This document shows positions 5,435 to 20,134 of a stretch of DNA of 64,000 nucleotides, piece after piece (the stretch's first letter is position 1; each line of letters opens with the position of its first letter). The notes beneath the pieces are model-generated. The model was not told where the DNA came from. It ran no database searches and saw nothing but the letters and a program-made list of their open reading frames with translations. The translations under genes and the position numbers were made by a program. Origin of the DNA: an uncultured Candidatus Saccharibacteria bacterium (GTDB lineage Bacteria; Patescibacteriota; Minisyncoccia; Phycocordibacterales; UBA1550); the NCBI GenBank assembly GCA_964457625.1, contig CAYWES010000001.1:17725-81724 (forward strand). The letters are read 5' to 3'.

Positions 5435-5550
5435 AGGATATTCCTCCTAGGGGTGAGTTGAAAGCTATTCAAGGACTTCCTTCCTATGCATAGCATAAAA
5501 GGCTGGAAAGGGGAAATCTTGAAAAAGAGGGGTGGGGGAGAGAAAAGGGG

Positions 5551-5596
5551 CACCAAATCAAAAGCCCGTCATGTATGACGGGCTTTTGATTTGGTG
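5551..5596. repeat. 22-bp perfect palindrome (hairpin) abutting/overlapping the 3' CCA end of tRNA-Lys
   Basis: CACCAAATCAAAAGCCCGTCAT-GT-ATGACGGGCTTTTGATTTGGTG; the right arm includes the tRNA discriminator and CCA. Confidence 0.85.
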
Positions 5597-5667
5597 CCCC
5601 CGGTAGGACTCGAACCTACGACCATCTCGTTAAGAGCGAGCTGCTCTACCAACTGAGCTACGAAGGC
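5592..5667 (-). tRNA. tRNA-Lys(CTT)
   Basis: Reverse complement reads GCCTTCGTAGCTCAGTTGGTAGAGCAGCTCGCTCTTAACGAGATGGTCGTAGGTTCGAGTCCTACCGGGGGCACCA; anticodon loop CTCTTAA. Confidence 0.85.
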
Positions 5668-13980: not shown

Positions 13981-14835
13981 ATGAATGAATATACTGAACA
14001 ATCGGTGCCTGTAGCTTCAGGTACCAACACGGCGCTTTTGCCGGTGGGAGCTTTCTTGAAGGAAGTCTGGATGCTTCTCAAAGCTCGGTTCCTCAAACTC
14101 GCGGTGATAGCGCTTATTCCGGCTATTGCTCTATATTTGATGTCCTCTTTGCCAGAGGACGAGGTCATGCTGAGTCTTTTTGAGACTACGCCCGCGATAC
14201 TACTTATTCTTCCAGTCCTTCTTTTCATCGCGATTTGGGTGCTTATGGCGGGAGTTGCCGCGCTTTTTGTTGCTGCGTCTGCTCCTGAAAACACCGTCAC
14301 GATTCGTCATTCTTTAGGAATAGGATTCAAAAAATTATTATCATTGATTTGGATTGGCCTGTTGATGGGGTTCATTATTATGACAGGGGTTCTCTTGTTC
14401 GTTGTTCCGGGAATATTTCTTAGCATCGCTTTTATTTTTGCAGTACTCTTTCTTGTGAATGAAGACGCGCGAGGACTCACCGCACTCACAAAAAGTTACA
14501 ACCTTGTTGCGGGAAGGTGGTGGGCTGTTTTTTTACGATATATGTTAGTGTATGTTCTCCTCGTCGTGATTTCAGGAGCTATTACTTTTGCCTTTAGGTT
14601 TAACGAAGCGCTTGGTGAATCGATAGCTTTCCTCATTAGTATGCCACTCACGGTATCCGCTCTTGCTGTCTTGTACAAAGATTTGAAAAGAGGAGAGACC
14701 CCCGCAACGCCTGAGGTTACGGCAAGAAGAAGGAAGGTTTTCATTGCACTGGCAATCCTTTACCCAGTTCTTCTCATTGCTTTCGTTGCCGTCTTTGTAT
14801 CCTTTATACTCCCAAATCTCCCCGCAACGTTGTAG
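13981..14835 (+). CDS. polytopic membrane protein, function unknown
   Basis: 284 aa, about 6 hydrophobic helices, no recognisable catalytic motif. Confidence 0.6.
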   Translation: MNEYTEQSVPVASGTNTALLPVGAFLKEVWMLLKARFLKLAVIALIPAIALYLMSSLPEDEVMLSLFETTPAILLILPVLLFIAIWVLMAGVAALFVAASAPENTVTIRHSLGIGFKKLLSLIWIGLLMGFIIMTGVLLFVVPGIFLSIAFIFAVLFLVNEDARGLTALTKSYNLVAGRWWAVFLRYMLVYVLLVVISGAITFAFRFNEALGESIAFLISMPLTVSALAVLYKDLKRGETPATPEVTARRRKVFIALAILYPVLLIAFVAVFVSFILPNLPATL

Positions 14836-14889
14836 AGGGCGATGCGCTTAAGGGTATCATTGAACCTATTAGAAGTATGTGTTAGAGTA

Positions 14890-14915
14890 AACAAGTCGCT
14901 TTGAGGCGACTTGTT
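14890..14915 (+). terminator. hairpin immediately upstream of tRNA-Tyr (possible terminator for the membrane protein gene)
   Basis: AACAAGTCGC-TTTGAG-GCGACTTGTT. Confidence 0.45.
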
Positions 14916-14916
14916 T

Positions 14917-15000
14917 GCGTAGGTGGCGGAGTGGTCAATCGCAATTGACTGTAAATCAATCGCCCTTTGGGCTTCGAAGGTTCGAATCCTTCCCTACGCA
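14917..15000 (+). tRNA. tRNA-Tyr(GTA)
   Basis: GCGTAGG...anticodon arm ATTGA-CTGTAAA-TCAAT, long variable arm, T-arm GAAGG-TTCGAAT-CCTTC, acceptor CCTACGC-A. Confidence 0.9.
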
Positions 15001-15013
15001 CAATTCAAAATAG

Positions 15014-15040
15014 CGCCCATCAGGGCGCATATTTTGTTTG
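15014..15040 (+). terminator. terminator hairpin after tRNA-Tyr
   Basis: GCGCCC-ATCA-GGGCGC followed by ATATTTTGTTTG. Confidence 0.6.
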
Positions 15041-15283
15041 TGCGTAGGGAGGAAGCCGTTGGTACGGCTTCCGTAAGGATTCGAACGGCGGAATGTGAAA
15101 TTTTTAGCAAAAAATTTCCATGAGCCGGTGCCTAGACCAAAAGTGAGTGGCGACGAACTTTTGAGTCGAAGGAGAATCCTTCCCCCAACAGACACCACTT
15201 TCCCCAAAACACCCTCCTACCCACGCTTTTCGCTTGAGCTCGCCTCGTTGCTTTTTTTTTGAGGATATAGTAGGATAGGCGAC

Positions 15284-15442
15284 ATGTCACAAGATCAACT
15301 TATCAAACTCGTCTGCAAGGACTGCAAGCGCGTGAACTATTGGTCGCGCAAGAACAAGAAGCTCGTTGAGCGCAAAATCGAGCTCGACAAGTTCTGCAAG
15401 TGGTGCAAGAAGCACACGACGCACAAGGAAGGAAAGAAATAA
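15284..15442 (+). CDS. rpmG: 50S ribosomal protein L33 (52 aa; below the ORF-track cutoff)
   Basis: Own translation gives MSQDQLIKLVCKDCKRVNYWSRKNKKLVERKIELDKFCKWCKKHTTHKEGKK, with the CxxC...CxxC zinc ribbon typical of L33; AGGATAGG upstream. Confidence 0.85.
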   Translation: MSQDQLIKLVCKDCKRVNYWSRKNKKLVERKIELDKFCKWCKKHTTHKEGKK

Positions 15443-17525: not shown

Positions 17526-18296
17526 ATGGTCAAAAATCTCGCTACAACAAATATGAATACCCTAGGCACACCTCAGCTTCATGAGAAGCCGAAGCACAAG
17601 CTCTCACCATCAACAATAGAGAAGCTTCAATACTATGTTTACACACTTTCCGACCCTCGGACTAATAAAGTTTTCTACGTTGGCAAAGGAAAAGGAAATC
17701 GCATAAATCACCACTTGCTTGGTGCACTTGAAGAGAAAACCAAAGAAACGGAGAAAATAAAAACTATCAGAGATATCCAAAAAGCGGGGCTTGAAGTAAG
17801 CCTCGATATTATTCGTCATGGCTTAACCGAAAAAGAAGCTTTTGAAGTAGAGAGTTCGATTATTGATGTCCTCGATATTAAATCTCTTACAAATCTTGTA
17901 TCCGGGCATCATTCATACTTAAGAGGGAAAAAGACACTTCGGGTTATTGAAATTGAATACCAAGCAAAGCCCGCAAACTTTGACGAACCAGTCGTCCTTA
18001 TCCGTATCAATCAGGAATTCAGGCACGATATGACTGTCGAAGAACTGTATACGGCGACACGAAAAGACTGGAAAGTCGGACAGCGAGTACATGACATCAG
18101 TATTGCTTGCGCCGTATATGCTGGAATTATTCGCGAAGTATATAGTGTCAAAGAATGGGTACCATCTCCCGGAGTTCCCGGACGGCATATGTTCAACGGA
18201 AAAATCGCAGAAGACAGAATTCGTAACAAGTACATCAACAAGTCCGTTGCTCATATCTGGAAGCAAGGAAGCCAAAATCCGATTAAGTATGTTTAA
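17526..18296 (+). CDS. GIY-YIG nuclease-domain protein with an uncharacterised ~150-aa C-terminal domain
   Basis: YYVYTLSDPRTNKVFYVGKGKGNRINHHL matches the GIY-x10-YIG-x-R-x-H core; the C-terminal part (..RKDWKVGQRVHD..ACAVYAGIIREVYSV..) has no recognisable motif. Confidence 0.6.
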   Translation: MVKNLATTNMNTLGTPQLHEKPKHKLSPSTIEKLQYYVYTLSDPRTNKVFYVGKGKGNRINHHLLGALEEKTKETEKIKTIRDIQKAGLEVSLDIIRHGLTEKEAFEVESSIIDVLDIKSLTNLVSGHHSYLRGKKTLRVIEIEYQAKPANFDEPVVLIRINQEFRHDMTVEELYTATRKDWKVGQRVHDISIACAVYAGIIREVYSVKEWVPSPGVPGRHMFNGKIAEDRIRNKYINKSVAHIWKQGSQNPIKYV

Positions 18297-19597: not shown

Positions 19598-20107
19598 ATG
19601 ATGAGCAAGGCAACAGAAGATGCGGAGCGTACGATTGAGAACGCACGCAAGAGACTGAAAGACGGCACATGGCCTCAGGTTATGGCAGTCTTTTTTTACC
19701 CAAACCCGAAAGCCCCACGCGTGCAGGATGAAGAGTTCTTACGACTTCAATCTTTCTACGAAAATGCTTCGCTTCCCAATATGGCGCTGTTCATTGAGAT
19801 TGTGCAGTTTATGGAAAAAGAATGCGGGGTAACCATGTCGTTTAACTTCAGTTTGTGCAACCGAAGAAACCAAGGAGACCTCGGAGATTCTGAAATGACT
19901 TCAGGACATGCAACACTCTATTTTGGTACCCGTGATTTACTCGTGGGTACGCGCGGAGGAGTGGAAGGTGCCATGGTATGGTTTAGAAATATCTCTGAAG
20001 GAATTTCCATGATTGCACCGGAGCTTCTCCAGATTTTGGATAAAATCTTTGGTGAGGCGGTGGGCATTGTACGACGTCCTGAAAAGGATAAGTCTCGTGT
20101 ACACTAA
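19598..20107 (+). CDS. hypothetical protein
   Basis: GGAGG RBS before the ATG at 19598; 169 aa; no recognisable motif. Confidence 0.5.
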   Translation: MMSKATEDAERTIENARKRLKDGTWPQVMAVFFYPNPKAPRVQDEEFLRLQSFYENASLPNMALFIEIVQFMEKECGVTMSFNFSLCNRRNQGDLGDSEMTSGHATLYFGTRDLLVGTRGGVEGAMVWFRNISEGISMIAPELLQILDKIFGEAVGIVRRPEKDKSRVH

Positions 20108-20134
20108 AAATATCACCCCTTTGGGCGATATACT

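Follow-up and report, generated by a model that had tools for sequence, protein, structure and literature searches.

The spacer between tRNA-Tyr and rpmG in the window, as we call the whole 64,000-nucleotide stretch analysed here (contig CAYWES010000001.1, positions 17,725 to 81,724), contains one copy of a large, conserved, tRNA-linked structured-RNA family in Parcubacteria. Its units, ~130–190 nt long, directly follow tRNA genes on their 3′ side and share the strand of the tRNA; the family is apparently undescribed. A covariance model of core type 1a (R1), built from 23 homologues on other contigs with the window left out, matches window positions 15041–15193 (+) over its full length (model positions 1–153) with 113 bits and E = 4.8e-26, identifying this segment as a member of the tRNA-3′-flank element family. 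The unit starts at 15041 on the same strand as tRNA-Tyr, which ends at 15001, and the + strand of the region folds at −98.3 kcal/mol (z = −5.66, with 0 of 200 shuffles as good). An original prediction made from the sequence alone had proposed a structured non-coding element with genuine tRNA-fragment mimicry in this spacer, and the fold z-score, the covariance-model match and the complementarity of the arms to the tRNA all bear it out. Of the candidates that it had named, a small non-coding RNA comes nearest to the result.

Described structured RNAs do not account for the unit. The original prediction had seen no canonical tRNA, tmRNA, signal recognition particle RNA or RNase P RNA here, and this holds: ARAGORN called no tmRNA and no tRNA at 15041–15230, and Rfam 15 models searched on the window region at gathering thresholds and at E ≤ 10 returned only tRNA-Tyr at 14917–15001, with nothing at 15041–15230. 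On 12 loci carrying four core types, Rfam 15 returned only tRNAs and chance miRNA-like hairpin matches at E ≤ 0.1, and no 6S RNA, riboswitch, known ribozyme or intron model of that release matched above noise in the window or the 12 loci. Two of the checks that had been suggested with the prediction, an Rfam scan and a comparative alignment, were informative, the scan giving no match to a known element and the alignment revealing compensatory changes and strong conservation across relatives. Protein coding was considered and set aside: mechanical open reading frames (ORFs) of 55 amino acids (+) and 83 amino acids (−) overlap the element, and homologues differ by insertions, deletions and changes that compensate within hairpins. 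A minus-strand gene convergent with tRNA-Tyr was likewise rejected; the fold of that strand is similar (z = −4.93), but the counts of G–U versus A–C pairs and all model matches point to the tRNA strand. A second, weak model match in the window (19976–20112, E = 0.1) is noise, lying where a coding region ends.

A family of units behind tRNA genes

The window genome belongs to the Parcubacteria (Patescibacteria, Candidate Phyla Radiation); its ribosomal protein L33 is 73–87% identical to L33 of Nomurabacteria, Yonathbacteria, Kaiserbacteria, Campbellbacteria and other Paceibacterota metagenome-assembled genomes (MAGs), and no sequence identical to it was found among protein records. We collected 80 related Parcubacteria loci solely because they encode L33. 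Searching these loci with nhmmer gave weak but consistent matches, none of them upstream of rpmG and each directly downstream of a tRNA (Tyr, Trp, Leu, Thr or Lys). The covariance model found 24 matches at E < 0.01 in the same loci, 23 of which follow a same-strand tRNA or belong to an array headed by one. In metagenomes, at least 120 contigs match a degenerate type-1 core pattern, and 128 instances among the matches listed were gathered with this sequence pattern for further analysis. A same-strand tRNA ends 25–94 nt upstream of 85 of these 128 instances, representing 32 anticodons and 16 amino acids, and not one of the 128 follows a tRNA on the opposite strand. Several instances for which no tRNA was called have an undetected T arm and acceptor end upstream or occupy a deeper position in an array; approximately 15% seemingly stand alone, yet keep tRNA-like N73-CCA ends. 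At loci L093, L174, L136 and L183, T-arm and acceptor 3′ ends (for example, ...CATCTCCA) occur 100–200 nt upstream of units where ARAGORN calls no tRNA, and these may belong to intron-containing or otherwise unusual tRNA genes.

Counted from the side of the tRNA, 35 of ~158 tRNAs in the rpmG-selected loci and the window have their own final 17 nt repeated 100–350 nt downstream (with up to 3 mismatches, mostly 0–1); in the window itself, one of eight tRNAs carries a unit. Roughly a fifth of the sampled tRNA genes carry 150–600 nt of conserved non-coding structure, and at least four sequence types of core are represented. No match came from BLAST searches of phage and plasmid collections, and a phage or plasmid origin was set aside: two IMG/VR sequences that match the pattern are without a T′ arm (defined below) and look like chance.

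Arms templated on the adjoining tRNA

Units share a common order of parts: the tRNA, a trailer that often contains a terminator-like hairpin, an arm A′, an optional hairpin P2, an arm T′ (ending ...GGAWTCGAA), a structured core and a direct repeat, DR2. The 5′ arm, comprising A′, the optional P2 and T′, is the reverse complement of the last ~17–20 nt of the local tRNA, and DR2 directly repeats the stretch of that tRNA between position ~57 and the discriminator, after which C or CCA usually comes next. The arms pair with each other, and the resulting stalk reproduces the acceptor and T stems of the adjoining tRNA, with the core in place of the T loop.

The match between arms and tRNA is specific to each locus. 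In 53 of 85 units with an assigned tRNA, the last 15 nt of the local tRNA recur with ≤2 mismatches at a fixed offset, ~43 nt after the pattern, and 42 of these copies are exact; with the tRNA end of another locus as control, 0 of 85 recur. The T-part copy of DR2 is present in 78 of 83 units. Its acceptor part is bimodal, exact in 47 of 78 and absent in 26 of 78, independently of the presence of P2 or A′, and an acceptor remnant downstream of a shortened DR2 is found in 5 of 26 cases versus 1 of 26 in the control. The base after DR2 is C in 44 of 53 units, and CCA follows in 12 of 53. Local templating of the arms is thus firmly established.

A covarying core on the tRNA strand

The conserved core consists of two hairpins: P4, which contains a GGA/GA internal loop, and P5/P6, which ends in a tandem-GA tip. 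In an alignment of 23 full-form type-1a units, 91.3% of paired cells can pair, compared with 67.2% in shuffles, and the covariation score is 0.658 versus 0.201 in shuffles (0 of 500 reach 0.658) and 0.085–0.14 when the partners are slid; 34 of 44 pairs change on both sides. Across the family, a P2 helix of at least 8 of 9 bp stands just 5′ of T′ in 76 of 123 distinct units, which use 72 different stem sequences, with a CUGC loop in 35; a control placed 60 nt upstream reaches at most 8 of 9 pairs, in 5 of 122 instances. All nine P2 pairs covary, and covariation extends to every helix of the unit. Within the core, the P5 CCY/RGG pair covaries as well (CG in 17, UA in 4, UG in 1 and one non-pair).

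Mismatch counts assign the fold to one strand. P2 pairs include 60 G–U versus 1 A–C, P4 has 13 G–U versus 4 A–C, and the base of P6, the first pair of the outer helix of domain 2 (columns 98/149 of A1), is GC in 78, GU in 25, AU in 8 and AC in 0. Because G–U far exceeds A–C, the fold belongs to the tRNA sense strand, and the simplest reading of these counts is that it acts as an RNA of that strand. The architecture, covariation, strand and tRNA linkage of the family are firmly established. A kissing contact of the P2 CUGC loop with the AGCAG loop of P4 was considered and dropped, as the two showed no association (p ~0.2). We also observed a mini-hairpin, GAGCGNAGCGA(G), which contains GCGAAGC with tandem G–A closing pairs and recurs in trailers (L007, L022, L027, L002, L005 and L122) and at the tips of unit helices, P4 and P6, in many units.

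Persistence, relocation and arrays

On five contigs, the cores of orthologous units behind tRNA-Arg(CCG) differ strongly and show compensatory changes, but their DR2 copies are exact, and the trailers that adjoin exact DR2 copies are 15–25% diverged. Exact repeats beside diverged trailers and cores therefore suggest long persistence together with selection, or homogenisation, acting on DR2. Conversely, all 12 pairs of cores with 80–90% identity adjoin different tRNAs, each with locally matched arms; such pairs include Lys/Asp, Ser/Leu, Leu/Pro, Arg/Tyr, Trp/Arg and the window tRNA-Tyr unit paired with a tRNA-Glu unit at L107 (identity 0.83). Because similar cores stand beside different tRNAs with arms of local sequence, cores move between tRNA genes and have their arms re-copied from the new neighbour, and this relocation is firmly established. 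Tandem duplications with extended repeats of 27–46 nt and hybrid or partial second units likewise indicate ongoing duplication and recombination.

Arrays of two to four units are common behind a single tRNA, and units of differing core types are combined at L001 (3988–4620), L018 (2918–3290) and L049 (3021–3400), with further examples at L008 (3925–4400, −), L071, L076 and L136; internal repeats in such arrays often end after the T-stem part. At L122, a second, partial unit shares the trailer, A′ and half of P2 with the first, and the sequence switches inside the CUGC loop. Locus L184 (268–1850) has ~1.4 kb between tRNA-Gly and a type-1 unit whose DR2 still matches tRNA-Gly exactly. The insert includes a fragment of a serine-recombinase-like ORF (Zn_ribbon_recom), and a different mobile element seems to have inserted at the junction of tRNA and unit. 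L184 was also the only candidate for an autonomous version with an ORF between the repeats, which was rejected because the recombinase fragment is unrelated.

Proposed mechanism and alternative explanations

We consider it somewhat more probable than not that the units are co-transcribed and duplicative RNA elements that mimic tRNA tails behind tRNA genes. A terminator-like hairpin separates tRNA and unit in only 14 of 53 copies, and the trailer leads into A′ or T′ with no space left for a promoter; as a rule, units are therefore likely to be transcribed together with the tRNA. The element would be transcribed from the tRNA promoter as a 3′ extension, which for the window copy would need read-through of the terminator at 15013–15028, and the transcript would fold on its own into stalk and core. 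Enzymes that process tRNA ends could then cut out and trim the unit, a route that is reasonable because the stalk and N73-C(CA) tail resemble a tRNA end. The family would multiply by duplicating beside other tRNA genes, its arms being re-copied from the target tRNA gene; the simplest route would be fold-back or template switching at the palindromic T-loop sequence TTCGAA and the terminator palindrome, with later palindrome correction. As to role, we slightly favour a passenger of tRNA transcription units, selfish or neutral, over a host regulator.

Several points weigh against this account. Transcription, processing sites and CCA addition are all inferred from sequence, and no recurring transposase, integrase or reverse transcriptase was seen across the loci, so that an enzyme for relocation was not found. 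The stalk departs from tRNA geometry: P3 lengthens the T stem by 4–5 bp, no T loop remains, and a short or mismatched P1 is frequent. The stalk is thus not a geometric tRNA minihelix, and its recognition by RNase P, RNase Z and the CCA-adding enzyme is uncertain. The stalk model alone does not explain why the acceptor part of DR2 stays exact even in units that offer it no pairing partner. Invariance of the core motifs is partly inflated because the metagenome set was gathered by sequence pattern, and a sense-strand G–T excess would also be expected if the fold mattered in single-stranded lagging-strand template DNA. The window copy itself may be poorly expressed or decaying, as it has a good terminator upstream and a shortened DR2. 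A broader reading, which we regard as possible but hold with less conviction, is that the units represent a new class of element: an RNA module that colonises tRNA genes, with arms templated on the 3′ end of the target (one inverted, one direct), so that each copy is a tRNA-specific 'shadow'. Such a module might arise by target-templated copying, or it might be a bistable device in which one guide arm holds either of two identical tRNA 3′ ends, serving as a T-loop intervening sequence with a spare 3′ exon or as a tRNA-specific decoy.

Among the alternatives, a small RNA that serves the host is the least improbable, although we consider it unlikely. In such an RNA the stalk would have to equal the acceptor and T stems of one tRNA and the core would be an effector or protein-binding part; candidate partners would be the cognate aminoacyl-tRNA synthetase, EF-Tu (in a tuning role), or a tRNA-end nuclease or toxin for which the unit is a decoy. 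It would fit the DR2 acceptor part, discriminator included, that stays exact beside short or absent A′ arms and drifting trailers, the C (44/53) or CCA (12/53) that follows DR2, the survival of orthologous units through compensatory changes, the stand-alone units with N73-CCA ends and no adjacent tRNA, and the retention of the family in very small, gene-dense genomes. The distribution is however patchy (~35 of ~158 tRNAs in the rpmG-selected loci, one of eight in the window), about a third of units are without the acceptor copy, P1 mismatches are common, most synthetases also need the anticodon, which is absent here, and arrays, shortened units and relocation between tRNAs are hard to reconcile with a host function. 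A repeat that acts as single-stranded DNA is less probable still. It would fold on the sense strand as lagging-strand template and be moved by an enzyme acting in trans (compare REP/RAYT, IS200/IS605-type elements and attC), with the universal T-loop and T-stem sequence as both element end and target. Inverted repeats around a two-hairpin core, whose inner 9–10 bp (GGAWTCGAA/CGAWTCC) are universal T-arm sequence, target direct repeats, tandem arrays and relocation all suit this idea, as do the G–T excess and the recurrent GCGAAGC-type mini-hairpin, which is very stable in DNA. Yet the loci inspected contain no HUH/Y1 transposase, RAYT or integron integrase, the only recombinase being the unrelated serine-recombinase fragment at L184; units always run in the direction of the tRNA transcript, DR2 is followed by N73-C(CA)-like tails, a tandem-GA internal loop such as the conserved one here is characteristic of RNA, and repeats of 17–20 nt or longer are unlike the target duplications of the REP/RAYT, IS200/IS605 and attC families. 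Elements of IS200/IS605 type are recognised by sub-terminal hairpins bound by Y1, the absence of target duplication, a guide read from the flank and tnpA/tnpB in the genome; for a miniature element of this type or a TnpB omega RNA, the two hairpins and flank-derived 3′ segment would be compatible, whereas long direct and inverted target copies are atypical.

We give a low probability to an intervening sequence with a spare 3′ end, in which the distal copy (DR2) closes the tRNA, the proximal copy pairs with the arm X′, and the segment from proximal position ~57 to the end of the core is a T-loop insertion that is removed or tolerated. Closing the acceptor with the distal copy is predicted to be more stable than closing it with the proximal copy in 40 of 40 loci (median −7.4 kcal/mol) and is the unconstrained minimum, because X′, the arm that pairs with the proximal copy, is also complementary to the proximal trailer. 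The arrangement would account for the exactness of the whole DR2, including unpaired outer acceptor bases and the discriminator. The palindrome by itself, however, makes this energy gap almost inevitable, and folding during transcription favours proximal closure; the proximal copy already completes the tRNA, making splicing unnecessary, and no splicing signals or enzyme are evident. Stand-alone units exist, and a third of units, the window copy included, are without the acceptor part of DR2; distal closure is therefore not the whole story. Still more improbable is an attL/attR remnant of an integrase-borne island or a decayed tandem tRNA duplicate, both of which the original prediction had raised. 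Its integration scar was right to the extent that a direct repeat of the tRNA 3′ end, beginning in the T loop, is genuine, defines the family and is a classic mark of tRNA-targeted integration, and L184 does have a recombinase fragment between tRNA and unit. A scar would not explain why the same 90–130-nt core, with covarying helices, compensatory changes and a strand-specific G–U excess, recurs behind tRNAs of 16 amino acids, nor the constant size and lack of cargo of an interval that holds a ~130–150-nt structured core without ORFs. A decayed duplicate fails on the same recurrence, on D and anticodon arms that are never present, and on the absence of any match of the unit to ARAGORN or the Rfam tRNA models. 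Finally, the location of the window copy upstream of rpmG had invited the proposal of a ribosomal-protein leader or autoregulatory site for L33, to which we assign almost no probability. Homologues stand behind tRNAs of many kinds whatever gene lies downstream, as in 23 of the 24 model matches, and relatives with tRNA-Tyr 58 nt from rpmG have no element between them (L004). Moreover, a conserved putative rpmG promoter lies downstream of the element, the mRNA would be nearly leaderless, and this promoter block is conserved in relatives without the element, so the element is not an rpmG leader.

Relation to described systems

Full-text literature searching found no description of this architecture, and we know of no report of RNAs that join a common core to arms templated, across many tRNA species, on whichever tRNA is adjacent. 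The element has individual traits in common with several described systems but departs from each of them in a defining property. RNAs shaped by tRNA-processing enzymes include the tRNA-like domain of tmRNA, the bacterial Y-RNA-like YrlA, the MALAT1 mascRNA and tRNA-linked viral miRNAs, and 3′ETS-leuZ is an RNA from a tRNA-operon spacer. The units resemble these RNAs in having an acceptor-stem-like helix and a tRNA-like 3′ end, in lying in or near tRNA transcription units and in being plausibly co-transcribed and excised. Those RNAs each have one fixed module, by contrast, whereas the stalk here copies the adjacent tRNA (16 amino acids) and carries a 90–130-nt core in place of the T loop; the 5′ arm of the unit is also complementary to the end of the upstream tRNA, and no Rfam model of those families matches.

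DNA elements offer partial parallels. Williams is said to have described in 2002 islands and prophages that target tRNA genes and carry a direct repeat of the tRNA 3′ end, with the T loop as one sublocation. Like them, the units have a 3′-end repeat that runs from the T loop to the gene end, and sometimes through the trailer or terminator, and they pile up behind one tRNA. Unlike them, a unit is only ~150 nt long, has no integrase or cargo, adds an inverted copy and holds an RNA-type core with compensatory changes, and one core type is used at many tRNA species, a breadth that a site-specific integrase would not show. The units share with REP/BIME elements and their RAYT, MITEs, IS200/IS605-derived PATEs and integron attC sites a short, non-coding, multi-copy nature, positions after genes, inverted-repeat arms around hairpins, strand-specific folding and arrays. 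They differ in arms that are copied from the adjacent tRNA, in a strict tRNA linkage and co-orientation, in N73-C(CA) ends and in the absence of a cognate enzyme in the loci inspected.

Intervening sequences provide a further comparison. Archaeal and algal tRNA introns, split or permuted tRNAs and the intervening sequences of 23S rRNA excised by RNase III also combine a structured insertion, for tRNAs at a loop, with complementary flanks that join the ends, and the T loop is one known site of archaeal tRNA introns. Here, however, the upstream tRNA is complete, no bulge–helix–bulge or splicing enzyme is evident and the hosts are bacteria; the duplicated 3′ end is a feature of the units and not of those systems. 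The nearest published report concerns group I introns in Patescibacteria tRNAs, located in the anticodon loop at position 35/36. These too are selfish or persistent RNAs tied to tRNA genes in very small genomes of the same phylum, but they are ribozymes of more than 200 nt that Rfam models find, whereas the units are smaller, follow intact tRNAs on their 3′ side and are recognised by no intron model.

Parcubacteria genomes are among the smallest and most gene-dense in bacteria. If the stalk is indeed re-written for each tRNA, either a copying mechanism uses the target tRNA gene as template, which to our knowledge is not known for any bacterial repeat, or each tRNA has its own mimic RNA built on an effector core common to all. 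In both cases the biology would be new, as regards tRNA genes, the way mobile RNA evolves and the poorly understood RNA of the Candidate Phyla Radiation. The covariance model can be used to annotate a common 'unexplained' intergenic feature in Patescibacteria MAGs, and the family is a naturally occurring case of an RNA presented on a scaffold derived from tRNA.

Organization of the window copy and its locus

The gene order around the element is a membrane protein (13981–14835), tRNA-Tyr (14917–15001, +), the flagged spacer, rpmG (15284–15442), alanine racemase and tRNA-Trp. The spacer is a composite of a tRNA trailer with a terminator-like hairpin (15002–15039, hairpin 15013–15028), the element (15041 to ~15193), whose decayed tail reaches ~15229, and a putative rpmG promoter (15248–15276). 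tRNA-Tyr(GTA), called by ARAGORN at 14917–15001 (+) and by Rfam with 63.2 bits, is the 'master' of the unit: its last ~20 nt, comprising the 3′ part of the T loop, the 3′ strands of the T stem and acceptor stem and the discriminator, recur in the arms of the element. The trailer, listed at 15002–15040 (+), contains the bidirectional terminator-like hairpin GCGCCC-ATCA-GGGCGC (15013–15028) and a T-tract. It forms the centre of a palindrome with 28-nt arms that links the tRNA 3′ end to A′, an inverted repeat of 14991–15018 with 15023–15050, centred on the terminator loop, that the original prediction had missed.

The 5′ arm begins with A′, TGCGTAGGGA (15041–15050, +; model positions 1–10), the complement of the tRNA acceptor 3′ strand and discriminator (tRNA positions 14991–15000), which forms the 5′ strand of stalk helix P1. 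The copy of the tRNA 5′ acceptor string, TGCGTAGG, that had been reported here does match 14916–14923, although it lies at 15041–15048, 1 nt from the position first given; the same string is also the complement of the tRNA 3′ end. Inverted-repeat search places P2, GGAAGCCGT-TGGT-ACGGCTTCC, at 15051–15072 (+), where a tRNA body would branch off. The perfect hairpin described after the acceptor string is therefore real, but has 9 bp rather than 8 (15051–15059/15064–15072) and a 4-nt loop. T′, AAGGATTCGAAC (15075–15086, +), was detected as an inverted repeat, in the fold and in the model match; it is the reverse complement of tRNA positions ~54–65 and 100% complementary to 14980–14991, as expected of the inverted T-arm copy originally noted. 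Its segment AAGGATTC pairs with 15174–15181 as stalk helix P3.

Core domain 1 (15086–15127, +) comprises P4a, CGGC (15086–15089) with GCCG (15124–15127), an internal loop in which GGA (15090–15092) faces GA (15122–15123), and a hairpin at 15093–15121 whose perfect stem, 15097–15105 with 15110–15118, closes an AGCA loop. P4a shows a G/C swap across homologues, and pairs of the hairpin covary too. The A/T hairpin seen earlier corresponds to this stem, GAAATTTTT-AGCA-AAAAATTTC (15097–15118), with a loop corrected to 4 nt and a stem corrected to 9 bp. Core domain 2 (15131–15172, +) comprises P5, CCU (15131–15133) with AGG (15170–15172), and the P6 hairpin (15135–15167), with a CAAAAGU/ACUUUUG stem and a tip at 15145–15156 made of tandem G–A, 2 bp and a 4-nt loop. 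DR2 follows in shortened form as GAATCCTTCCC (15174–15184, +), an exact direct repeat of tRNA positions 14984–14994 that had been overlooked. It contains the 3′ part of the T loop and the 3′ strand of the T stem and serves as the 3′ strand of P3; the T part is exact over 11 nt, and the acceptor part is absent, with 4 of 15 mismatches at the canonical offset. The copy is thus intact in A′, P2, P3 and both core domains, its DR2 ending after the T part with a C-rich stretch in place of the acceptor part. The C/A-rich tail beyond it (15185–15229, +) includes a possible decayed acceptor-strand remnant, CTCCTACCCAC (15215–15226), which pairs with A′ in the minimum-energy fold, is not kept across the family and is not significant against the control.

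Downstream of the tail, the predicted rpmG promoter (15248–15276, +), outside the element, consists of a −35 box TTGCTT (15248–15253), a 17-nt T-rich spacer and a −10 box TAGGAT (15271–15276). A simple promoter scan gave no score, and the assignment draws on the sequence itself; the block TTGCCTTTTT..TATAGTAGGATAGG stands directly before rpmG in many relatives, among them some without an element there, with tRNA-Tyr only ~58 nt upstream. The 'CCTCGTTGC-T9-GAGG' string that had been counted as part of the structured region is present, but belongs to this promoter block and not to the element. The rpmG mRNA is predicted to be leaderless or nearly so, because the ATG at 15284 lies only 7 nt past the −10 box.

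Other parts of the window show related features. Downstream of tRNA-Lys (5592–5667), at ~5547–5591 (−), the acceptor-end complement TGGTGCCCC recurs after the terminator and lengthens the terminator palindrome into the tRNA, giving an A′-like arm without a core; such an arm may be what is left of an element of this kind, or a stage that precedes one. At 14889–14916, between a plausible TTGAAC-17-TAGAGT promoter and tRNA-Tyr, an 11-bp hairpin, AAACAAGTCGC/GCGACTTGTTT, directly adjoins the tRNA 5′ end, and hairpins flush with tRNA 5′ ends may be usual in the window genome. An ORF at 17526–18296 (+), 2.2 kb downstream of the element, encodes a LEM-3-like GIY-YIG nuclease domain (Pfam PF22945, E = 6e-19).

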